Below are positions 53,168 through 64,000 of a stretch of DNA of 64,000 nucleotides, piece by piece. Both the position numbers and the translations under genes were made by a program. This DNA is from Leptolyngbyaceae cyanobacterium. GTDB lineage: Bacteria > Cyanobacteriota > Cyanobacteriia > Phormidesmidales > Phormidesmidaceae. The stretch covers positions 3,200,001-3,264,000 of the forward strand of contig CBDHHL010000032.1 of assembly GCA_965263355.1 (NCBI GenBank), in the 5' to 3' direction. The notes below the pieces were generated by a model that saw only the letters and a program-made list of their open reading frames with translations, had not been told where the DNA came from and made no database searches. Within the stretch, counting starts at the first letter, position 1. Each line of letters opens with the position of its first letter.

Positions 53168-55186
53168 ATGGCGCAGGCAGATGTACTGGTGGTGGGTGGC
53201 GGTATTATTGGCCTTGCGATCGCAACCGAACTGCGCCAGCAAGGTGCGACAGTAACCATCCTCAGCCGTGACTTTAATGCGGCAGCAGGTCATGCGGCGG
53301 CGGGCATGTTAGCCCCTAGGGCTGAAGGGTTGACAGGCCCTATGCTAGAGCTAGGTCAGCGTAGTCTGTCCCTCTATCTCGACTGGTGTCGTAAATTAGA
53401 AGAGCTAACGGGCCAAGATACTGGCTTTTGGCCCTGTGGTATTCTTGCTCCGCTTTGGGAATTACCCGCTGAAACCAATGGACTAGCGAACACTACTTTA
53501 CTCGGCCAGACCGCCATTCACAGCTATCAATCCCATCTCAGTCCTCAAGTAGCCGGTGGTTACTGGTACCCCGAAGAAGGGCAAGTCAATAATCAGGCTT
53601 TGCTCAAAGCCTTACGGATAGCTTCCCAAGATCTGGGTGTGGAGATCCAAGAGGGGGTAAATGTCATCTCTTTTTTGCAACAGAATCACCATGTAACTGG
53701 GGTATTGACTTCCCAGGGGCAGCAGCAGGCGGGGCATTATGTACTGGCGACTGGTGCTTGGACTAGTGAGCTGTTGCCAATTCCAGTAAAGCCTTGTAAG
53801 GGGCAAATGGCTGCCCTGTTGACTCCCCTTGACTCTCCCTATGGCCTCAGTCGAGTTTTGTATGGCGAGTACAGTTATATTGTGCCGCGCAAAGATGGGC
53901 GAATTGTGCTTGGGGCTACGAGTGAAGATGTTGGATTTACTCCCCATAACACTTCTAGGGGAGTAGCCCAGCTGCTTAACGAGGCGATTCGGCTTTATCC
54001 GCCCTTAGCTGATTTTCCTGTGCAGGAGTCTTGGTGGGGATATCGTCCAGCGACTCCTGATGAGGCTCCTATTTTGGGTCCTAGCCATTGCGATAATCTA
54101 ACTCTGGCAACGGGGCATCATCGCAATGGTGTTTTGCTGACGCCGATTACGGCTAAGCTGATTGGTGAGGCGGTTAAGGGAAAACCTGATCCGCTGTTAG
54201 ATGCGTTTCATTGGGAACGGTTCATGGAGGCGAGGGGTACCCATGGGACGGGAATGGAGCGTACTGCTCCGGTTCAAAATGTTCAAATTCAAAATGTTCA
54301 AAATGCAATGCCGATAGTGGGCACTGCCCACCCTACGGTTTTACACAATTCTACAGATATGCAAACGCTTTCGGCTCCTGTTGTGACAACGTCTGATGAT
54401 GTGCTGGTGATTGCGGGACGGTCTTTTGCGTCTCGGTTGATGACGGGGTCAGGGAAATTTGAGAACTTTGAGACGATGCGGGCTAGTCTGGCGGCGAGTG
54501 GCAGTCAGATTGTGACAGTAGCTGTGCGGCGGGTGCAGACCAATGCTCCAGGGCATGAAGGATTGGCCCAGGCCATTGACTGGCAGAAGATTTGGATGTT
54601 GCCCAATACTGCTGGCTGTACTACGGCTGACGAAGCGATTCGTGTGGCTCGACTGGGGCGAGAAATGGCAAAGTTGTTGGGGCAAGAAGACAACAATTTT
54701 GTCAAACTGGAAGTTATCCCTGATGCTAAATATTTGTTGCCGGACCCGATTGGTACCTTGCGGGCTGCAGAACAACTTGTGAAGGAAGGGTTTACGGTGT
54801 TGCCCTATGTGAATGCAGATCCGATTTTGGCAAGGCATTTGGAAGAGGCTGGCTGTGCGACAGTCATGCCCCTAGGCTCTCCCATTGGCTCTGGCCAAGG
54901 GGTGCGTAATGCGGCTAACATTCGCATTATTGTTGAGAATGCCAATATCCCGGTGGTAGTAGATGCGGGAATTGGTAGTCCCAGTGAAGCAGCAGAATCG
55001 ATGGAGATGGGGGCGGACGCCTTACTGATTAATACTGCGATCGCAAAAGCTCAAGACCCGGTCAAAATGGGACGAGCCATGGGGCTGGCAACAGAAGCAG
55101 GTCGTTTAGCCTATTTAGCCGGTCGGATTCCAGTAAAAGCATATGCCAGCGCTAGCTCTCCACTAACGGGTACCATTACCAGCTAG
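53168..55186 (+). CDS. thiOG: Fused glycine oxidase ThiO - thiazole synthase ThiG
   Basis: [65 protein letters not shown]. Confidence 0.95.
54317..54336. repeat. REP-like palindrome inside the thiO-thiG linker
   Basis: GTGGGCACTGCCCACCCTAC (reverse strand begins GTAGGGTGGGCA). Confidence 0.7.
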
Positions 55187-55368: not shown

Positions 55369-57081
55369 TTACTGAGGGCTGGGAAGAGAATTAGTCTGCA
55401 GACAAGGTGCTGAAATCAGAATTTTCCCCTGATCTTGAACAACTTTACAGGTAGGTAAAAGTTGTTGCAGTGCGGAAGGTTGTTGCCGTAGTTGATTAAT
55501 GGCTGCTGTCCATTCTGTTCTATATTGACGTAACCAAAGTTTAGGCAAAGTGTTCAGGTTAAAAGAATTTTCATCCACTAGCCAAAAGTCAATGTCATAT
55601 TTGTCAATTACAGACTGTAATACTGATCTGTCAGGGCTATACTGCGCTTGAATGAGATCCAATGTGCGCTCTCTAATTTGGCGATAATACTCCTGATGAT
55701 AGGCAATGCTGTGGCCACGACTTAAGAGCACTGAACGCCCCGTGAAGGCAGGAATGTTTTCGGCCTCATTGGCAAGAGAGGCAATGCGAATATCCTGTGG
55801 CTGTTGGTTTATATACTCATAGAGTGCCGTTCGATTTGACTTCACATAGACAACATTGAGAAAACTGTTGAGGAATAGGGGATAGCCCACCGTGGTGATG
55901 GTGATACCTGCAATTATTGCTAGGGCAGTAATCTGTTTCCAGAGGCTATAAGGTGCTTTATAGAGCCGTCTAAGGCCACTATCCAACCATGTTATTAAGA
56001 CCATGGCAGCTGCTAAGGCAACGATAACTTTGATGCCATGGCGGCTATAGCGGCTGGGTAAATGCAACCAAAATAAAGTGGCGTGAGATGCTAAAAACAT
56101 CAGAATTCCAGCCAAGCCAATCTGGACTATAAGAACACCATTGGGGGTGATTTTTTTGAGCAGTGGTGGACGAAACCAGAGCATTAAGGGTAACAGCAAT
56201 GACAGTGCTGTGGTGGTCGGGGCGACGGGGGGGAAGAATCCACTGCGACTGGAGAATAGCCAAAATTTCCACCATTTATCTCGGAAAAATGCATTGCGGC
56301 CACCCGCTTGAAATTCGGCCATGGTTTTGGCTTGTTCCAGGCTGACAACGGGACCATAGGGGGAGGTTTCTAAGGCATAGGGTAACAGCACCAAGATTGC
56401 GATCGCGCCACCCACAATCAAGAATTTCAGATGATGTTTTTTGTCATTTTTGTTAGTTGTTGGCCATACCACTCGTAGTGCCAGGACTACAACCGATATA
56501 AACACCAGGTGTGGGTAGAAAAAACCCTGCAAGGCAATGGCAATGGCACAGCCCCAAATATTACGGCGAGCGACATAAACCAAAAAGACAATCACCAGTA
56601 ACACACTAAATCCTTTGGGGGTGCCTGATGCCACTTCATCCCACATCCAAAGGGACTGATTGAGAATAACTGTATTAACAAATGCCACCAGCGGCACGGG
56701 AATGATGGCTAAAGCCAGATAAAACGTGTAGACAGTGCCTGCTAAGCAAATGAAGGGAGGCAGGAGTTTGTTAAATAGAAATGGATTAATCCCGATTAGT
56801 GATCCGAAACGATACAAGGCTTTATAGCCTATCGGGGCCACAGACTGAAAATAGTCAGCCATGAGGTCATCTGGAAACATCATTGGATCCACATAACGCC
56901 ACATCCAAAACACATGCTGTCTAGCATCATCCTGGATCCCATAGGGACCCTCGAAGGCAATGCGCCAGAATAAGATGCCATAAAGCATGGCAATGGCCAG
57001 ACTAGCCATTAGCCAAAGGTTTTGCGTTTTGGGGGTGGAACGCAGACCGTATTGGTGAATCCAGTTGACAAGAGTCTTCAC
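55369..57081 (-). CDS. Polytopic membrane protein, probable GT-C fold glycosyltransferase-like
   Basis: Many TM segments, DD motif in the first loop (IQDDARQH), soluble C-terminal domain. Confidence 0.6.
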   Translation of the reverse strand: MKTLVNWIHQYGLRSTPKTQNLWLMASLAIAMLYGILFWRIAFEGPYGIQDDARQHVFWMWRYVDPMMFPDDLMADYFQSVAPIGYKALYRFGSLIGINPFLFNKLLPPFICLAGTVYTFYLALAIIPVPLVAFVNTVILNQSLWMWDEVASGTPKGFSVLLVIVFLVYVARRNIWGCAIAIALQGFFYPHLVFISVVVLALRVVWPTTNKNDKKHHLKFLIVGGAIAILVLLPYALETSPYGPVVSLEQAKTMAEFQAGGRNAFFRDKWWKFWLFSSRSGFFPPVAPTTTALSLLLPLMLWFRPPLLKKITPNGVLIVQIGLAGILMFLASHATLFWLHLPSRYSRHGIKVIVALAAAMVLITWLDSGLRRLYKAPYSLWKQITALAIIAGITITTVGYPLFLNSFLNVVYVKSNRTALYEYINQQPQDIRIASLANEAENIPAFTGRSVLLSRGHSIAYHQEYYRQIRERTLDLIQAQYSPDRSVLQSVIDKYDIDFWLVDENSFNLNTLPKLWLRQYRTEWTAAINQLRQQPSALQQLLPTCKVVQDQGKILISAPCLQTNSLPSPQ

Positions 57082-57232
57082 AGCAATCAGAAAGAAACTG
57101 GGCGATGCCTAATCCATGTCCAAGGTCAACGGTTTCTTCTATAGAAAAAATCACTTGAGAACATGGGACAAAGCCTATCTTACTAAAGGCTATGCTCTAT
57201 CTATCGCTGTCTTGAACTACGAGTACCCTGGC

Positions 57233-57700
57233 TTACGTTGCTTTTATCAGTACCAAATCGCCGTCAATAATAGCTTCGTAGGGCGCTAGCGGTTGAGTTG
57301 CAGGGCCTGTGTTTACGCTACCATCAGTGTTGAATTTTGACCCATGGCAGGGGCAGGCCAAGAGGTTATCTTTCCACTCAACGCCACAACCCTGGTGGGT
57401 ACACATGGAGTTGAGGGCGATAATGCTATCGGCATTAGCTGGATCACGAATGACAATGACGGGACCGGCAATAAAGCCTTTTTTGCCGAGATACCCATTG
57501 GCATCCAAGTCAGCGACGGTGCCCAAGGCAGCAAACCCATCAGCTCGGGGTGTTTCGTCGATTTTTTTTGGAGCGGTAGCGGACTCTGCTTCAGGGGCTT
57601 CAGACGTAGTTTCGGTAGAGTTACAGGCTGCGATCGCAATTGGCAACGATGTAGCTAACAGGCCTAACCCAAACAAGCTGCTAAACTCGCGACGTTTCAT
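57233..57700 (-). CDS. Rieske 2Fe-2S lipoprotein (PetC3-like)
   Basis: Tat signal KRREF, lipobox IAAC, CTHQGC and CPCHGS. Confidence 0.92.
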   Translation of the reverse strand: MKRREFSSLFGLGLLATSLPIAIAACNSTETTSEAPEAESATAPKKIDETPRADGFAALGTVADLDANGYLGKKGFIAGPVIVIRDPANADSIIALNSMCTHQGCGVEWKDNLLACPCHGSKFNTDGSVNTGPATQPLAPYEAIIDGDLVLIKAT

Positions 57701-57852
57701 ATTCTTTCCTCTCTTTAGTTACTGGAATCTAGGGGGTGGATGTGGGTTTACCCACTAGTATTGTGTCAAGTTCTAATTTTTGGATAAGGCCGTGAATAGT
57801 GATATGCGTAAACGCATGGCCTTGGGCTTTTGTGGTGATTAGTGACAGACAG

Positions 57853-59628
57853 CTAGGTGCTGGTTTCAGCGGCTGGCAATCCGCTCAACCATCCTTGATG
57901 CCGAATGACTGTGATCAGCACGAATAGCAGGTCTAGACCCACGACACCAGCGATGATTAATTCAGAACCACCGGTCCCAAATCCATAGCTGTGTAGCCCT
58001 GTACCTAGCACAAAGTTAACGCCATACCAGGCCATTAGCACCGCATTAAAAGCCACTACACTGGCAACACTGATACCAAAATTGCCAATCCAACCTACTA
58101 AGCGACCATGGAGCGGTACCAGGTAGCAGAGTAAGGCAATTAAAGCCCAGGTTTCCTTTGGATCCCAGCCCCAGAAACGACCCCAGGAGAAGTGCGCCCA
58201 AATGCCACCTAAAATAATACCAGCCGTCAATAATAGGACACCAACCTGGAGGACACGATAATTTAGCTGGGAAAGTAGCTTGATACGTGACTGGGCATTG
58301 GGGGTAAACAGGTAGCTCCCCAGAGCGACATGACCCAGACCCAACGCTAGGGCAAAGCTAGCGTAGCTCAGGGCAATGGTGGGGACATGAATACTCAACC
58401 AGAAGTTATCACGTAGGACTGGTACTAGGGGTGAAATGCTAGGATCTAACACCGCCGGTAGGCTATCGGCCAAAATCAGACAAATAACCGATAGGGGAGC
58501 CGCTGCCAATACATAGTACTTGGACCGATACAGCAGCTCAAACATCAGGGCAATAGCAGCAATGCCAAAGCCAACCCACACTACGGACTCGTACATGTTG
58601 GTCACTGGTGGGCGACCGGCAATTTGCATCCGTAGCCAGAAGCCACAGCTTTGTACAGCCACACCCGCAACAAAGGTACCTATGGCAGTCCAATATAGAT
58701 TAAAGGGCTGTACCCATAGGGCCATCAACATTAAGACAAAGGCAATACCATAGAGCTGCCATGCTTTAGCAAAGGGATGAAAGTGGTTAAAAAACACTTC
58801 GCGCTGCATGACACCGTCTGCTGGATAAACCGTGGGGCTAAGACTCGCTAAGCCATCTTTTAGAGACTGGGCCAGGGGGGCCAGCATAGGCAGATGGTCA
58901 GTGCCTGATAAAACTGTCTGTTTAATAATGGCGAAGTTGGCTAACAGTGGAGCCACTGACTCGGCATCGTACAGGCTTTGGGCCTCGGTAATGCCAACCC
59001 ATTTGCCTTTGATGTCAGTGGGATGGGGGACGATTGCGATCGCATTATCATCCACCATACTCAGCATTAGTTGTAGCCGGTCTTCAATGGTTAAAGCTTC
59101 TCGCTCATCACGGGTCAAATCTTCCTCGTCAATTTGTTTCTGGTGTGCCGCTCTAACCACCTCCCCTAAGGACTGATTTCTCATCAACGTTGCGAAGGAG
59201 AAGTGTTTTTGTTCCAAATCCAGCCCCGCCAGCTCTTTCAAGGGGCGATAGCTAACCAACACAAAGGGTTCTTCGTTCCAGTTGCGATTGTTGAGCCACA
59301 GTGACATAAAGGTTTCCATGGCGCTTTCTTCAACCCCATTGTGCTTGTAGGTGGTGGCCCCATAGATTTTGGCAACCGTTTCCTGAGCCACCGTATCCAG
59401 TGGCTTTTTCCGCCCACCCTGTTGCACAGTTATGGTCTGTAGGCTGTCTAGAGTCGATGGCTGAAACTGGCTGATGGGCATTGCAATGAGCAACAGCCCA
59501 AGGCATAAACCAATGACAAATTTAAGAAGTTTCATGGGATGTGGCTTGTACATAGTGGTATGCGAAGCGCAGGGTCTTAGATCTTTAGTTTGATATTTTG
59601 ATGCGGATGGGATGATGTCGGTCGCCAT
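57853..59628 (-). CDS. ccsA: Long System II cytochrome c synthase CcsA/ResC
   Basis: RPPVTNMYES, WLSIHV, WAHFSWGRFWGWDPKETW, GLHSY; large N-terminal soluble domain (GRKKPLDT); start may be 59535. Confidence 0.92.
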   Translation of the reverse strand: MATDIIPSASKYQTKDLRPCASHTTMYKPHPMKLLKFVIGLCLGLLLIAMPISQFQPSTLDSLQTITVQQGGRKKPLDTVAQETVAKIYGATTYKHNGVEESAMETFMSLWLNNRNWNEEPFVLVSYRPLKELAGLDLEQKHFSFATLMRNQSLGEVVRAAHQKQIDEEDLTRDEREALTIEDRLQLMLSMVDDNAIAIVPHPTDIKGKWVGITEAQSLYDAESVAPLLANFAIIKQTVLSGTDHLPMLAPLAQSLKDGLASLSPTVYPADGVMQREVFFNHFHPFAKAWQLYGIAFVLMLMALWVQPFNLYWTAIGTFVAGVAVQSCGFWLRMQIAGRPPVTNMYESVVWVGFGIAAIALMFELLYRSKYYVLAAAPLSVICLILADSLPAVLDPSISPLVPVLRDNFWLSIHVPTIALSYASFALALGLGHVALGSYLFTPNAQSRIKLLSQLNYRVLQVGVLLLTAGIILGGIWAHFSWGRFWGWDPKETWALIALLCYLVPLHGRLVGWIGNFGISVASVVAFNAVLMAWYGVNFVLGTGLHSYGFGTGGSELIIAGVVGLDLLFVLITVIRHQGWLSGLPAAETST

Positions 59629-59633
59629 TGCGA

Positions 59634-61451
59634 CTAAGCAGCGGGTTTACCGGAACGGTTCGAGAAAAAGCTAAAAATTGGAATAGGTGTAGCAGCTCCG
59701 TCCTTGCTATCTTGGACCTCAGGCGAACCTAGAACGTCACCTAAAAACTGGAGCTTTTTGGCCACGGATCTACCATAGAACATGATAGCCACACCTAAGG
59801 TAACCATCAGTGACCCTAGCCAGGTCAGCCCGGTTACCCACCAGGGCTCCCGTTTAACCTGTAGCGTAGACTGAGCTAAATCACCAGGATTCCAGGATGC
59901 TTGAGCAATTTTCCAACCCTGAAACCAGGTAGGATGATTCATCCAAACACGACGTTCAAATAGCTCACCTGTTTGTGGGTCTATGAGGGTGACCAAACTG
60001 GTCCACATAGCGACAGACTCACTACCCTCATTGCGCTCCACAATAAAGTCATTGAGTTTAAGGGCAAAGGGAAGGCGCATTAATTTGGGGCTAAAGGCCA
60101 CATACCAATCCTCTGTTGATGTGGCGACTGTAGTCGGTTCACCCCAAGGAATCCATGCAACTTGACCATCTGTCGTTGCTACCTGTAAGGCCGGTTCTCC
60201 CCCACCAGCTCCCTCGGGTAAGGGCGTTACATCTCGTTCCACCTTCGCCTGGGGCACGTAGTCTTCAAGCGTGATTTCAAAGTCTGCCCAACCTGGCGTC
60301 ACAGATTGTCCGAGGGCAATCGGTCCAGATTTAAACCCTTTAGAAGACCTGGCTGCGTAATAAAGGCCACCCTTCATGTCTACGACGATTTTAAAGAACG
60401 CATCTGGTTGGGAGTTGGCATCGATTTCATAATCGATATTAAGGGCTAACGGTGCACCTCCCGCTAGCTGGGTACGAATAGAGTCAAACCCAGGGGTGCC
60501 AAAGATAAACCAACGTTCAACAACGTCACCTGTAGAGACCTCTAACTGCACTGCTGGATTCCGCAGCTGCTGGGTGACCGTTTCTGGCTGGCCATTACCA
60601 TCCAGTCTAAAATCAGGCCAAAAACCCTGAACCGTGAGATTTATATCACCCAGAACAAGGGATTGATTTAAATTGGACCTAACATCTACAGTCTCTGTGC
60701 CATTAGGGAGGGCAAGCTGTAAGTTCCCCCAAGGCGCTTCAACATTCTGAGCAGGAGCAGTTAGCGTCTGTTGCAACTCCTGCTCAGAATGTACCGTTTG
60801 AATTTGCAATTCAGCCGGTCCGATATCCATCCGATCATAGGCGGCTGGGGCAGCTGCTAACCAACGCTCAAGTGTTTGTCCCATGCGTTGACTAGTCAGA
60901 GAAAGACGCACAGCTGGATTATCGATGGCAGCACCATCGATAAAATGAACGGTTTTAATCGCATGTTTGGTATATCCCAACAGGGATAAATCTCCCAAAT
61001 GATCAGGAACAATATGACCACTGTCCTTAATAAACAGAGAAGTTTGTTGATTCTCTTTGCCGGGGATGGCAAGTTCCAAGAGATCGCCGTCCACTCGTAA
61101 TGTACTAACAGGACCGCCATCGGTACGGGCTAGCAGCATGCCTTCCACACTCAAATGAATAACAGCGGCTGAACCTGCAATAATCACAACTAAGCCCCAG
61201 TGAGCAATGGCAAAGCCAACCTTACGAGCACCTTTCCAGGGATAGCGCAGCAGTGTGGAAAGACTGAGATTTACTGCCAATAAAAACATAAGAGCCCCAA
61301 ACCACGGGCTTTTATAAATTTCTTGTTGGACAACAGTTGCTCCCACTTCGGACTCATAAAATGTGGCACCAATCAGAATAGAACCGATTACCACCAGCAG
61401 CGGTACAGCCAGTCGAATCGAGCCAATAAATTGGATTACAGCAGACGTCAT
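59634..61451 (-). CDS. ccsB: System II cytochrome c biogenesis protein CcsB/ResB
   Basis: Three N-terminal TMs with AHWG His, LPFALKL.DF, MNHP..F.G.KI.Q.S, EP + C-terminal TM. Confidence 0.85.
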   Translation of the reverse strand: MTSAVIQFIGSIRLAVPLLVVIGSILIGATFYESEVGATVVQQEIYKSPWFGALMFLLAVNLSLSTLLRYPWKGARKVGFAIAHWGLVVIIAGSAAVIHLSVEGMLLARTDGGPVSTLRVDGDLLELAIPGKENQQTSLFIKDSGHIVPDHLGDLSLLGYTKHAIKTVHFIDGAAIDNPAVRLSLTSQRMGQTLERWLAAAPAAYDRMDIGPAELQIQTVHSEQELQQTLTAPAQNVEAPWGNLQLALPNGTETVDVRSNLNQSLVLGDINLTVQGFWPDFRLDGNGQPETVTQQLRNPAVQLEVSTGDVVERWFIFGTPGFDSIRTQLAGGAPLALNIDYEIDANSQPDAFFKIVVDMKGGLYYAARSSKGFKSGPIALGQSVTPGWADFEITLEDYVPQAKVERDVTPLPEGAGGGEPALQVATTDGQVAWIPWGEPTTVATSTEDWYVAFSPKLMRLPFALKLNDFIVERNEGSESVAMWTSLVTLIDPQTGELFERRVWMNHPTWFQGWKIAQASWNPGDLAQSTLQVKREPWWVTGLTWLGSLMVTLGVAIMFYGRSVAKKLQFLGDVLGSPEVQDSKDGAATPIPIFSFFSNRSGKPAA

Positions 61452-61552
61452 AAGCAGGCAATAAGCAAAATTCCATTGAAGATCCCATTAGGGAAACCTT
61501 ACAGACGGTCAACAATATTCAACAATCTTCACTGTGAATCCAAGACTTTTTT

Positions 61553-61589
61553 GTATCTGTAGGTACAGAAAAGTTGTATTTTTTGTTAC
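61553..61589. promoter_or_regulatory. Two tandem NtcA-type boxes
   Basis: GTA-TCTGTAGG-TAC (61553-61566, extended TGTA..TACA) and GTA-TTTTTTGT-TAC (61576-61589). Confidence 0.6.
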
Positions 61590-62193
61590 CAACCCCAGTA
61601 TTATTCAAAAACTGAATTGATCTATGGCAATAAATGCAAGACGATTTGGGTTTAACTAAGTTTTTAGCGACTTCACTTAGATGAGGTTAGGTATCTTTTG
61701 CTGATTGAAAGTATATATTCAGCTAGTGTTTTAGCTTCCTTTATGGATGTTTATGGATGCGTGAAATACCCTTGCCCTAATTTTCTTTATTGAAAATAAG
61801 CTTGATTCTTTTCTTGCAACTGACAAATGCGATAAAGGAATTTTATTGTTGTTTTGGTAGCTGAAGTCACAAAAAAATAGTTGAGATCGCCATACTTTGA
61901 TACTCAACATGAGTAATTCCCGATCCATCAGAGTTAGCATTTTGTCTTTGCGAAATGCTTTTATGATGGGTTTTTGAGTTAATCATGCCTCTTCTTGTTA
62001 TCTAGGTTGCCGTCACTCTTGATTTGGTGTCGGTGAGTTTGCTTTTAGAGCCGTCAACTTCATCACATATGTAGTGCGTTAGCTGGGTTGTTTGAGTCTA
62101 AAGGGATTCTTCGGCTTGTTGCGCATGATGTTTTTTGAGGTTCTTTGCAACAAAGCATGTGATGAAAACTTGTTGAATTGAGACTTACCAGGC

Positions 62194-63192
62194 ATGTCCT
62201 TAAATGTTGAGTTGTTAGAGCAAAGTTTCGAACTCGTAAAGCCCCAGGCAGATGAGCTTATGAGCAGCTTCTATAACAACCTGTTCACAGACTATCCGGC
62301 GTCTAAGCAATTGTTTGAGCACTCAGATATGTCCAAGCAGAAGCAGATGCTTAAGGGTGCTTTGGTGATGACTGTTGAAAATCTTAGGAGACCTGACGTG
62401 CTCAGTGATGCACTTAAGGGTTTGGGAGCACGTCATGTGAAGTACGGGGCTTTGCCAGAGCATTATCCAATGGTTGGTCAGAGTTTGCTTAAGGCTTTGG
62501 CGCAGCATGCAGGCGATGCCTGGACTGATGAGCTTCAAGAAGCTTGGGCAGGAGCCTATGGTGTCATTACTGAGCTGATGCTTGAGGGTGCTGATTACGC
62601 TCCGGAGGAGGTGGCCTTAGAGAGTGCGCCTGCGCCGACTGCTGAGGAAGGTGGTCTGAATATTGAGGTTTTAGAGCAGAGCTTTGCTTTAGTGGCTCCC
62701 CAAGCCGATGATTTGGTTTCAACGTTTTACAATTATCTGTTTACAGATTATCCAGAGTCTAAAGCTCTGTTTGAGCATACTGATATGTCCAAGCAGGCAC
62801 AGATGCTCAAAGGTGGTCTAGTGATGGTGGTGGAAAATTTGCGCAAGCCTGATGTTTTAAGTAAGGCTTTGAAAGGGTTGGGGGCTCGCCATGTGAATTA
62901 CGGGGCTTTGCCCGCTCACTATCCATTGGTGGGTAACAGTTTACTAAAGGCCCTTGAGAAACATGCAGGTGCCGCTTGGACCGCCGAAGTTAAGGATGCT
63001 TGGGTAGATGCCTATGGGGCAATCACAGAGCTGATGCTTGAGGGGGCTGACTATGATCAGCAGGATATTCAGTTGGATTCTGCAGCGGCAGTCCTGCCTG
63101 AGCCACCAGAAGGTATTGGGATGGGGAAAGTAGCAGGCATCATTGGGGCTGGTTCAGTTGCCTTCATTGTTTTGTTGATAGTGTTTCTTTAG
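62194..63192 (+). CDS. Tandem two-domain globin with C-terminal membrane anchor
   Basis: Two repeats of LEQSF...FYN.LFTDYP.SK.LF..DMSKQ..ML...LGARHV.YGALP.HYP.VG..LL...AW..AY..I..LM; hydrophobic C-terminus. Confidence 0.93.
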   Translation: MSLNVELLEQSFELVKPQADELMSSFYNNLFTDYPASKQLFEHSDMSKQKQMLKGALVMTVENLRRPDVLSDALKGLGARHVKYGALPEHYPMVGQSLLKALAQHAGDAWTDELQEAWAGAYGVITELMLEGADYAPEEVALESAPAPTAEEGGLNIEVLEQSFALVAPQADDLVSTFYNYLFTDYPESKALFEHTDMSKQAQMLKGGLVMVVENLRKPDVLSKALKGLGARHVNYGALPAHYPLVGNSLLKALEKHAGAAWTAEVKDAWVDAYGAITELMLEGADYDQQDIQLDSAAAVLPEPPEGIGMGKVAGIIGAGSVAFIVLLIVFL

Positions 63193-63198
63193 TATTGG

Positions 63199-63849
63199 TT
63201 GCTTAGAGAGTTGATGGCTTTAAGGCAACGACTAGGTAAATTGTTGTCGCTCAAGACAGGGATTGTCTTAGCGTTATTAATTCTGCTTGTGTGGATTTCG
63301 GCAGCGTTTGCCCTAGATCAAAAACAGATTTTTTTGCCGGGTGAAACGTCTGAAGGTCACCATGTTTTTGAGGCATCCTGTGCGTCTTGTCATGAAGGGT
63401 TTAAGCCCGTCAGCAACGAGAACTGTGCACGATGCCACGAGGCTGAACTGGCTGATGATGTGCATGGGGTGAAAAAGTTTCGTGATCCCCGTTGGGCAGA
63501 ATATCGTGAAAGAGTAGATGTTTTAACCTGTACGGCTTGCCATAATGAGCACGTTCATATGTTTGGTCGTGGAGTCAATCTACAGCCAGATTTATGTATG
63601 GCTTGTCATGAGGAATTGACGCTGACGCAGCTCAAGAGTCATGAAGGATTTGCCCCTGATGGTTGCTGGACGGCGGGCTGTCATAACTATCATGATCATC
63701 GAACTATATCTACTGGTTTTTTACGGCAAAATATGGGGCAGCCCGATATGCTGCCAGTCCAGGAACTGCCGGATAGGGTTGTGACGACATCGCTGGAAAC
63801 TGCGCCTGAGCCCGATCTCCAGCAGGAGTTTTTGGGAGGTGGCTCATGA
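63199..63849 (+). CDS. Multiheme c-type cytochrome (cytochrome c3-like)
   Basis: N-terminal TM/signal; CASCH, CARCH, CTACH, CMACH and CWTAGCH. Confidence 0.92.
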   Translation: MLRELMALRQRLGKLLSLKTGIVLALLILLVWISAAFALDQKQIFLPGETSEGHHVFEASCASCHEGFKPVSNENCARCHEAELADDVHGVKKFRDPRWAEYRERVDVLTCTACHNEHVHMFGRGVNLQPDLCMACHEELTLTQLKSHEGFAPDGCWTAGCHNYHDHRTISTGFLRQNMGQPDMLPVQELPDRVVTTSLETAPEPDLQQEFLGGGS

Positions 63850-64000
63850 TGCGTCAAGTCATAGGTTTGCTGCGTTCTGTTGCTGTGATTATCCTGGTGC
63901 TTCTGCTGGTGTGTGGTACGGTTCCAGTTGCTAGTGCTACGACAGAGCAAGATTTGAATGACATCACAGTCCTGTGGCAAAACAGTGCTCACGCGCTTAA
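63846..64000 (+). CDS. Exported protein, probably a second multiheme cytochrome c (partial; not in the ORF track)
   Basis: ATG overlaps the previous TGA; MMRQVIGLLRSVAVIILVLLLVCGTVPVASA signal, then WQNSAHAL (WxxSxHA motif); no CxxCH within the window. Confidence 0.62.
   Translation, partial: MMRQVIGLLRSVAVIILVLLLVCGTVPVASATTEQDLNDITVLWQNSAHAL

Follow-up and report, generated by a model that had tools for sequence, protein, structure and literature searches.

A divergent gene block occupies the last part of a 64,000-nucleotide stretch of DNA from a Leptolyngbyaceae cyanobacterium (GenBank assembly GCA_965263355.1, contig CBDHHL010000032.1, positions 3,200,001 to 3,264,000 of the forward strand). 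The whole 64-kb stretch is called the window here, positions are counted from its first letter, and genes past position 64000 were read from relatives only. The block encodes a pentahaem and a hexahaem cytochrome c (MHC5 and MHC6), a globin with two domains (di-globin), a PetC3-type Rieske protein and two cytochrome c maturation proteins (ResB2 and CcsA2). Our preferred reading, to which we assign a probability of about 0.5, is that it encodes, in the form found in cyanobacteria, a haem chain which crosses the membrane, is widespread but uncharacterised, and serves the handling of nitrogen oxides (nitric oxide, NO). Such a role is pointed to because the relatives of this block in other bacteria sit among nitrate-assimilation genes. 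The parts, their ligand patterns, their conservation, their synteny and their homology to a fused operon of other phyla were observed directly in the sequences compared.

A previous reading of the window from its letters alone (the sequence-only reading) had described a minus arm of ccsB, ccsA and a Rieske gene facing a plus arm of a tandem globin, a cytochrome and an exported protein. Every one of these features was found again at its coordinates in the list of open reading frames (ORFs) and the Pfam and NCBIfam scans, with ResB2-CcsA2-Rieske on the minus strand and the di-globin, MHC5 and the start of MHC6 on the plus strand. The membrane-bound electron-transfer module that it proposed is real, being conserved in synteny in the best 80 of 94 relatives. 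It is not a cyanobacterial invention: the module is widespread in other bacteria, and cyanobacteria carry a rearranged version of it. No characterised equivalent had been known, and none was found in full-text literature searches; these returned no description of the cluster, with the limit that the supplements of one preprint (10.64898/2026.02.01.703092) may list such contexts. The module is undescribed in the searched literature: known families stand in a new arrangement, and the cyanobacterial form is a distinct variant.

The 11-haem cytochrome and its gene context in other phyla

MHC5 (216 residues; 63199..63849, plus strand) has an N-terminal transmembrane anchor helix, four CxxCH motifs and one CWTAGCH (CX4CH) motif, which makes five haem sites where four to five had been estimated. 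In 80 sequences the five haem motifs are accompanied by 6 further conserved His. MHC6, an exported protein, has a gene that overlaps the end of the MHC5 gene by ATGA and is truncated where the window stops (63846..64000, plus strand); the 51 residues present match the N-terminus of a 269-residue hexahaem protein (L006:10630-11439) of the relative L006, Leptolyngbya sp. PCC 7375. Six haem motifs and 6 further invariant His were found in MHC6.

When MHC6 was searched against 1.84 billion representatives, 281 proteins were matched at E<=1e-3, and many of them are 400-480 residues long, with a C-terminal half that resembles MHC6 and an N-terminal half that resembles MHC5. MHC5 aligns to residues 1 to ~200 of these fused proteins. 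At full length these proteins are membrane-anchored cytochromes with 11 haems, and they conserve every motif along with 11 further His. Judged by these alignments, MHC5 and MHC6 are the split form of the fused 11-haem protein of other phyla. Ten fused homologues were looked up, and the sole name on record was 'predicted CXXCH cytochrome family protein' (two listed members). A tblastn search of the plasmid collection with the fused protein gave zero matches.

The 11-haem pair looks like a wire with no apparent catalytic haem, a reading made because every one of the 11 haems has a candidate second His ligand. The nearest solved sequence to MHC6 is the Kuenenia HAO-like protein 6H5L (E 1.3e-5), and the AlphaFold model of MHC6 (pLDDT 83) matched the fold of 6H5L (E 2.4e-4), then TvNiR and then HAO; the fold matches span E 2e-4 to 3e-3 with TM scores on the query of 0.34-0.46, a weak but consistent likeness. 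All three are multihaem enzymes of the nitrogen cycle, which counts in favour of a nitrogen-oxide role. In the alignment, the CxxCH of the catalytic haem 4 of HAO as present in 6H5L has no counterpart in MHC6, and no CxxCK motif occurs in MHC6. From model and alignment, MHC6 seems to have the scaffold of the HAO/ONR type but not its active haem. MHC5 shares its architecture of an anchor helix plus haems with the quinol dehydrogenases NapC/NirT/NrfH; this assignment was rejected, as no such family was matched in Pfam or NCBIfam at E<=0.01 and MHC5 has five haems, not four.

A metagenome scan with the fused 11-haem family confirmed 360 stretches, of which 80 loci were kept. The gene order in these other phyla is b-haem protein, 11-haem cytochrome, DUF3365 protein and single globin; the 11-haem gene is adjoined by the DUF3365 gene in 65 of the 80 metagenome loci and by the globin in 39. 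The globin is ~137-150 residues long, and no hydrophobic tail was seen in the 8 sequences listed. Within the same 80 loci, ResB/CcsA occurred in 1, a Rieske protein in 1 and a thioredoxin in 0.

The b-haem domain forms the last ~180 residues of the upstream protein in 66 of the 80 loci, and 45 of the 69 members of this family are 642-771 residues long. Three of the fusion proteins were scanned. Two joined Pyr_redox_2, Rubredoxin_C and BFD-[2Fe-2S] domains, like the N-terminal half of NirB; in the third (L081:6376-8985, plus strand) two cNMP-binding domains, a BFD [2Fe-2S] domain and FAD_binding_6/NAD_binding_1 (FNR-type) replace the NirB-like module. In a few metagenome loci (L083, L088, L104) the b-haem protein is unfused, with 201-223 residues. 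The neighbouring families were defined by clustering, one member of each being scanned, and include a NasT-like ANTAR response regulator (15 loci), an NrtA/NasS-like NMT1_2 protein (12), an ABC ATPase (10), a permease (7), a molybdopterin nitrate reductase or NasA (6) and NIR_SIR (4); NirB was also among the scanned neighbours (L140).

The 495 N-terminal residues of the flavoprotein matched 0 of the 80 cyanobacterial loci, whereas its C-terminal transmembrane part matched 69. Just one full-length NirB-like ORF was found in five carrier genomes, on an unrelated contig. Compared with the operon of other phyla, the cyanobacterial form appears to have lost the flavoprotein, split the 11-haem gene, and multiplied and tethered the globin, with PetC3, a second System II and a thioredoxin joined to it. 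The loss of the NAD(P)H module fits this lineage, because cyanobacterial nitrate and nitrite reductases take their electrons from ferredoxin, not from NAD(P)H.

The block and its partner proteins in cyanobacteria

An MHC5-based scan with one genome per species yielded 94 encoding stretches, and the best 80 loci were kept. The record titles name cyanobacteria for 78 of them and 'uncultured bacterium' for 2; the carriers include Leptolyngbya PCC 7375, Adonisia, Leptothoe, Moorena, Acaryochloris, Geitlerinema BBD, Roseofilum, Spirulina, Prochlorothrix, Phormidesmis and many metagenome-assembled genomes (MAGs). A complete ORF was counted for the globin in 78 of the 80 loci, for MHC6 in 74, for the DUF3365 protein in 72, for the b-haem protein in 70, for the thioredoxin in 64, for ResB2 in 63, for CcsA2 in 57 and for the Rieske protein in 53, and many of the missing ORFs fall at contig ends. 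These counts bear out the co-occurrence of the genes across cyanobacteria on which the idea of a module depended. The tight coupling described for the plus-arm genes was seen as well: 6 bp separate the globin and MHC5 genes, and 50 of 74 pairs of MHC5 and MHC6 genes show the ATGA overlap again. This recurrence, like the CcsA2-Rieske adjacency given below, goes beyond chance. ResB2, CcsA2 and Rieske stay together as a trio through four different placements: 51 loci have it upstream and divergent, 6 downstream in the same orientation, 4 upstream in the same orientation and 2 in a convergent position.

The di-globin (332 residues; 62194..63192, plus strand) matched Pfam Globin with 128 bits in two stretches, at residues ~1-140 and 155-291, and a Gly-rich hydrophobic helix ends the protein. 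Because this hydrophobic tail is terminal and a signal peptide is absent, a tail-anchored design is predicted, with both domains probably on the cytoplasmic face. Of the 79 globins of the clusters, 74 have a hydrophobic C-terminal tail; 61 of these are double, 10 single and 3 triple. The nearest solved relatives of the di-globin are the Methylacidiphilum Hb, the Vitreoscilla Hb (VHb) and flavohaemoglobins (FHb). The flavohaemoglobin model NF009805 was matched over the globin part only (165 bits against a cut-off of 432), and Pfam and NCBIfam, in which only the globin stretches match, gave no fused FAD/NAD(P)H reductase domain. Across 43 di-globins the invariant columns of domain 2 are F175, Y176, F190, Q198, L202, H230 and Y240, which we take to be PheB9, TyrB10, PheCD1, GlnE7, LeuE11, HisF8 and TyrG5. 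On that reading, domain 2 has the proximal His and the TyrB10/GlnE7 distal pocket of 3-on-3 single-domain globins of the flavohaemoglobin lineage (VHb, Cgb and Bjgb type). Variants of the globin were noted: triple globins of 515-522 residues with the same putative tail anchor occur in L067, L079 and L080, an additional single globin of ~175 residues lies between the b-haem and thioredoxin genes in L046 and L050, and the Moorena loci have a single, apparently tail-anchored globin of 187 residues. A predicted complex of the b-haem protein with globin residues 150-329 scored 0.00 in two runs, a result that counts neither way. A 'novel haemoglobin' of Acinetobacter (PMC11836069) was considered as a prior description and set aside as a different system.

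In L006 the gene for MHC6 is followed by those for a DUF3365/Tll0287 haem-c lipoprotein, a five-helix membrane protein and a membrane-anchored thioredoxin (WCTTC). The sequence-only reading had looked to the region past 64000 for further CxxCH proteins and reductases. The relatives supplied the former (MHC6 and the DUF3365 protein) but no reductase or catalytic multihaem enzyme, and the list of components drawn up earlier, which was correct for the genes it named, did not include the b-haem, DUF3365 and thioredoxin proteins or the tail anchor of the globin. The DUF3365 protein matched PF11845 (Tll0287-like) with 74.9 bits, and C188, C191 and H192 of its CxxCH are invariant in 72 sequences. Outside this motif the lipobox C37 is its sole conserved Cys, and conserved His and Met candidates exist; a Tll0287-type Cys/His ligation is doubtful in the cluster protein because its sole other conserved Cys is that of the lipobox.

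The five-helix protein (197 residues) has H92/H106 and H175/H189 invariant on two helices in 67 sequences. Two His-13-His pairs of this kind are the classical di-haem-b signature, and it is predicted to be a di-haem b protein (the b-haem protein). Its fold gave no match at E<=0.001 with Foldseek against the PDB, and VIA-align wide returned only generic talin-like and designed helical bundles, in a Z range unspecific for helical proteins. Two unnamed cyanobacterial clusters were found for it in the ESM Atlas, together with a 0.86 link to Myxococcota that is to be read as a lead only. Around the cluster, a 72-residue Cys-containing membrane protein is encoded in 39 loci, a pentapeptide-repeat protein lies on the other strand in 41, and a ChaN-type haem-binding lipoprotein (PF04187, 242 bits) follows in 17.

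The Rieske [2Fe-2S] lipoprotein (155 residues; 57233..57700, minus strand) matched PF00355 with 46.2 bits; it has the cluster ligand motifs CTHQGC and CPCHGS, and its N-terminus carries an RREF twin-arginine signal followed by an IAAC lipobox. The top match in the PDB was Synechocystis PetC3 (5CXM, E 7e-18) over the whole soluble domain, the subunits of b6f complexes matched at E 5e-12 or weaker, and the PetC equivalog NF045928 scored 57 bits against a cut-off of 250. By these matches the protein is a member of the known PetC3 family. Its place in the block had been doubted for the gap of about 150 bp (152 bp, measured from CcsA2); the gene belongs there, since in 49 of the 50 loci carrying the two genes CcsA2 and Rieske are adjacent and co-directional, but what is locked to the block is an already known type of protein. 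In the accessible parts of two papers (PMC10172866, PMC12341915) PetC3 is described as a periplasmic lipoprotein with a midpoint potential of +135 mV, a nitrogen-related disorder is reported for the proteome of a PetC3 mutant, and the function of PetC3 is called unknown. Two other Rieske genes were noted. In an Acaryochloris-like MAG (G003) a PetC3-type gene (G003:C202:10348-11895) lies on a contig apart from the haem chain and adjoins an ORF of 459 residues with a weak match to pyridine-nucleotide-disulphide oxidoreductases; in L062, ~2 kb downstream of the cluster (L062:13651-14715, plus strand), a 355-residue protein joins a Ferric_reduct transmembrane domain to a Rieske domain (Pfam).

ResB2 (CcsB-like, 605 residues; 59634..61451, minus strand) matched Pfam ResB (PF05140) with 53.9 bits against a cut-off of 24.6, over a stretch of 72 residues only, and had no match in NCBIfam. 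CcsA2 (591 residues; 57853..59628, minus strand) matched Cytochrom_C_asm (PF01578) with 107.2 bits against a cut-off of 29.9 and stayed below the equivalog level of TIGR03144 (158.5 bits against 187.6). It has an N-terminal extension of roughly 300 residues, and its true start may be Met32, as relatives begin at MKLLKF, which is residue 32 of the window ORF. Three carriers (G001-G003) each hold a canonical ResB (462-477 residues) and CcsA (340-376 residues) elsewhere besides the divergent pair of the cluster; this agrees with the earlier claim that the cytochromes have their own maturation genes and supports the view that ResB2 and CcsA2 are a second, divergent System II set dedicated to the module. 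When 301 genomes were sampled evenly across the phylum, 4 had ResB2, 3 of them together with MHC5, and 4 had the MHC5 gene, one copy containing stop codons. In one sampled genome an MHC5-gene remnant with 51% identity and 4 in-frame stops, without a ResB2 match, lies at G175:C2:53833-54276, which suggests that the module is decaying in that lineage. In two cyanobacterial loci the ORF with the ResB match is about twice the usual length (1198 and 1226 residues), suggesting a fused ResB2-CcsA2 protein of the CcsBA type.

Beyond the Rieske gene, a 570-residue multi-pass membrane protein (55369-57081, minus strand) with no Pfam or NCBIfam match adjoins the block; it was dropped as a member of the module, since it is conserved only in the 9 closest loci. 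Next to it is an ORF of 672 residues (53168-55186, plus strand) whose homologue in L001 joins DAO (ThiO-like) and ThiG, a thiO-thiG fusion; in L006 ThiG is a separate protein of 292 residues.

A proposed nitrogen-oxide role and its alternatives

The occupancy of the haem sites, the topology, the conduction of electrons across the membrane and the handling of NO or related nitrogen oxides arising from nitrate and nitrite assimilation are what we infer from these sequences. On the cytoplasmic side, the flavohaemoglobin-lineage globin would be held at the membrane by its C-terminal tail anchor. In the membrane, the five-helix protein would carry two b haems that link the cytoplasmic and outer faces. 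The outer side is most likely the periplasm; there the anchored MHC5 and the soluble MHC6 would share eleven c haems with bis-His ligation and would form a chain with the DUF3365/Tll0287 haem-c Cache lipoprotein and the low-potential PetC3. The globin could act as a NO dioxygenase with one electron per turnover, the chain supplying or sharing electrons, and the far end of the chain could serve some periplasmic nitrogen-oxide or redox task.

In other phyla, electrons would enter from NAD(P)H via the fused NirB-like flavoprotein and reach both the globin and the periplasm. Two routes are conceivable in cyanobacteria: either ferredoxin-type donors feed the globin and the b haems and electrons exit to the periplasm, or the periplasmic chain brings electrons inward and re-reduces the globin. 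ResB2, CcsA2 and the membrane thioredoxin would mature the multihaem proteins, the housekeeping System II presumably being limited to monohaem cytochromes; a plausible reason for a separate lyase is that the 11-haem substrate has a CX4CH site and perhaps lies in a different membrane. We propose tentatively, as a possible though doubtful extension, that the module is a haem wire of a new class, one that crosses the membrane independently of quinones, in which a tethered NO-dioxygenase globin and periplasmic partners would carry out nitrogen-oxide detoxification on both sides of the plasma membrane with one electron chain, photosynthetic reductant (ferredoxin) or periplasmic donors replacing NAD(P)H in cyanobacteria.

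The divergent intergenic region (742 bp, AT-rich; 61452..62193) was inspected for signs of nitrogen control. A perfect TGTA-N8-TACA palindrome at 61552-61567 is the only one in the window (shuffle mean 0.76), and a second GTA-N8-TAC lies 23 bp away at 61576-89; both forms we take, from the NtcA consensus, to be candidate NtcA sites. Among 10 close relatives aligned, the site at 61552-61567 is kept as TGTA-N8-(T/C)ACA in the 3 listed. Upstream of the globin, GTA-N8-TAC occurred 39 times in 77 loci; dinucleotide shuffles gave 5.0 +/- 2.1, and none of the 200 came to 39. Its density there was 0.81 per kb, compared with 0.36 per kb for the remaining intergenic DNA of these loci. A block of ~55 nt at 61850-61905 (TTTTGGTA.CTGAAG.CACAAAAAAATAGTTG.GATCGC.ATAC.TTGATA) is almost invariant across the 10 close relatives, the rest of the spacer having diverged; lying ~290 nt before the start codon, it could be a promoter or leader element of the globin operon. 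An Rfam search of 61300-62300 gave TEG147 as its lone match, under the gathering score (E 0.064), and a scan of 56900-64000 for consensus promoters and terminators gave counts at or below the shuffle means.

Several observations weigh against a nitrogen-oxide role. As far as could be judged from the sequences, the NAD(P)H flavoprotein, through which the heterotroph version can be understood, is absent from the cyanobacterial form, and no site for substrate binding or catalysis was recognised among the outer proteins. The match of the b-haem protein to Ferric_reduct (PF01794) is under the cut-off (16.6 bits against 28, E 0.008). The NtcA-like motif occurs in only 34 of the 77 loci, which are related and not independent, and no TAN3T -10 box was seen by eye 22 nt from either of the NtcA-like sites. 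PetC3 has a role without the chain, because PetC3-type genes are present in 69 of the 301 sampled genomes, most without the chain, against 4 with the chain. The 112 non-core flanking ORFs scanned in the cyanobacterial loci contained 1 NIR_SIR (L073) and 2 urease accessory proteins, with no recurrent nif, oxidase, hydrogenase or nas genes, and there is no conserved linkage to nitrate-assimilation genes in cyanobacteria. The handling of NO and nitrite suggested in the sequence-only reading is favoured indirectly by the homologous operons of other phyla, which adjoin nitrate-assimilation genes, but not by the cyanobacterial flanks, and the microoxic respiration that it also suggested found no specific support. 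In the accessible text of the preprint cited above (10.64898/2026.02.01.703092), a stand-alone DUF3365 protein of Pseudomonas putida bound neither O2 nor NO strongly.

The same data can be read in other ways. The chain might be a general valve for the export or import of electrons, unrelated to nitrogen, that moves reducing equivalents between cytoplasm and periplasm, either to reduce acceptors in the periplasm or outside the cell (such as Fe(III), in reductive iron uptake) or for an MsrPQ-like repair of oxidised envelope proteins, with the globin merely an accessory that buffers O2 or redox state. The two His-13-His pairs together with the weak Ferric_reduct match resemble an MsrQ/NOX-like design, the second His ligands available to all 11 haems are wire-like and not enzyme-like, the ChaN-type haem/iron lipoprotein follows the cluster in 17 loci, and the cyanobacterial flanks have no nitrogen theme. 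However, the cyanobacterial block conserves no outer-membrane porin-cytochrome or iron transporter, and a valve leaves both the globin beside the chain (in 78 of 80 cyanobacterial and 39 of 80 other-phyla loci) and the nasT/nrt/nasA/nir neighbourhood of heterotrophs unexplained, so that we consider it unlikely. A device for oxygen, in which tethered VHb-like globins capture O2 and the chain reduces it or delivers it to oxidases for microoxic respiration or scavenging (for example, to protect nitrogenase in mat-forming filaments), seems to us quite improbable. In its favour, Methylacidiphilum and Vitreoscilla-type haemoglobins are the closest to these globins, which occur as di- and tri-globins and are apparently held at the membrane, and the carriers are mostly benthic or marine filamentous taxa by their record titles; yet nif, oxidase and hydrogenase genes were conserved in 0 of the 112 flanking ORFs, and the heterotroph operons are tied to nitrate assimilation, not to oxidases.

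That MHC6 is itself an HAO/ONR-like enzyme acting on periplasmic hydroxylamine, NO or nitrite, the rest providing an electron supply or sink, would explain why its best solved-sequence match is the Kuenenia protein 6H5L (E 1.3e-5) and why its best folds are 6H5L, the octahaem nitrite reductase TvNiR and HAO. The missing counterpart of haem 4, the lack of CxxCK, the six further invariant His available for six haems and a size half that of HAO/ONR make this highly improbable. We give even less credence to a redox or NO sensor in which the DUF3365 haem-Cache protein and the globin detect ligands on two sides of the membrane and the chain only poises them. DUF3365 is a Cache-type sensor fold, and a signalling-type member binds NO tightly according to the accessible text of the preprint (10.64898/2026.02.01.703092), but the cluster protein is of the stand-alone type, which is redox-like in the same text, the block has no conserved output part of the kinase, cyclase, MCP or HAMP kind, and eleven wire haems with dedicated maturation would be a heavy investment for sensing.

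The quinone-independent wire proposed above, if true, would give a first physiological role to three orphan families at once, the PetC3 Rieske proteins, the stand-alone DUF3365 proteins and the 11-haem 'CXXCH family' cytochromes. Electron transport in cyanobacteria has been described almost wholly by monohaem cytochromes and thylakoid complexes; some cyanobacteria would then run periplasmic multihaem electron transfer with a second, dedicated cytochrome-maturation system. The module comprises 9 to 12 genes and would hold about 16 haems and a Rieske cluster, probably in the plasma membrane, with its own maturation machinery; it occurs in at least 94 stretches of a collection with one genome per species, and it links proteins whose functions are open (PetC3, stand-alone DUF3365/Tll0287 and single-domain globins without a known reductase). 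It also offers a natural experiment, since heterotrophs have the chain together with an NAD(P)H flavoprotein and cyanobacteria have it without. Should the nitrogen-oxide reading hold, many nitrate-assimilating bacteria, as well as cyanobacteria that form mats or live as marine filaments, would have a route of NO handling that has gone unrecognised.

Comparison with known systems

The di-globin shares its globin lineage with Hmp and VHb and, by our reading of the helix positions, the same distal and proximal residues; Hmp has a fused reductase domain and the di-globin has none, and the tandem domains and the predicted C-terminal membrane anchor are new features with respect to both. MsrQ of MsrPQ and the NOX/FRE proteins are presumably comparable to the b-haem protein as ferric-reductase-domain electron shuttles: two predicted b haems, two His pairs 13 residues apart, two helices and no evident quinone site are common to them. 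As in NOX, the b-haem domain of other phyla is fused to a cytoplasmic NAD(P)H dehydrogenase. However, the b-haem protein has five helices, not six, its Pfam match is under the cut-off and its fold matches are only generic; unlike in NOX, the dehydrogenase of other phyla is NirB-like and N-terminal, and the acceptor would be the 11-haem cytochrome. The superfamily of HAO, octahaem nitrite reductase and NrfA contains the nearest sequence and fold relatives of MHC6, although MHC6 has no catalytic haem motif, reaches half the size of HAO/ONR, is probably bis-His throughout and has six haems instead of eight.

For the maturation pair, Wolinella NrfI/CcsA1, a dedicated System II paralogue for a special cytochrome, offers a likeness to ResB2 and CcsA2. 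The uet cluster with ccsAB of Tenderiales (10.1101/2022.05.06.490989) likewise has an extra CcsB/CcsA beside multihaem cytochromes that are presumably its substrates. Compared by its published description only, so far as the accessible text goes, its undecahaem cytochrome is extracellular and comes with a porin and triheme cytochromes and no adjoining globin, and uet was rejected as a prior description of the present cluster, being a different system.

Synechocystis PetC3 (5CXM) is the best solved relative of the Rieske protein, and the window protein has a Tat signal and a lipobox; the gene of the window type is locked to CcsA2, ResB2 and the haem chain, a context absent from Synechocystis-type genomes. 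The cluster DUF3365 protein resembles the stand-alone Tll0287/sCache_haem type by its Tll0287-like Pfam match and its conserved CxxCH. In the accessible text of the preprint (10.64898/2026.02.01.703092), the function of stand-alone members is left open, a P. putida homologue has a potential of +123 mV, and such members are without a gene-context pattern, in contrast to the fixed context seen in the cluster.

The closest parallel in function may be the NasT-controlled narK-bjgb-flp-nasC operon of Bradyrhizobium, in which NO made during nitrate assimilation is reported to be detoxified by a single-domain globin paired with an NAD(P)H flavoprotein (PMC4724949). Both systems encode a reductase-less globin of the flavohaemoglobin lineage together with its presumed electron supply, and the non-cyanobacterial homologues of the chain share with Bjgb-Flp the NAD(P)H flavoprotein partner and an operon beside nasT/nasA/nir genes. 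Bjgb and Flp are soluble and cytoplasmic, with no b-haem membrane domain, multihaem cytochrome or DUF3365 protein. The cyanobacterial form differs further, having no flavoprotein and no conserved nas/nir neighbours, and its globin is duplicated and, as predicted, tail-anchored.

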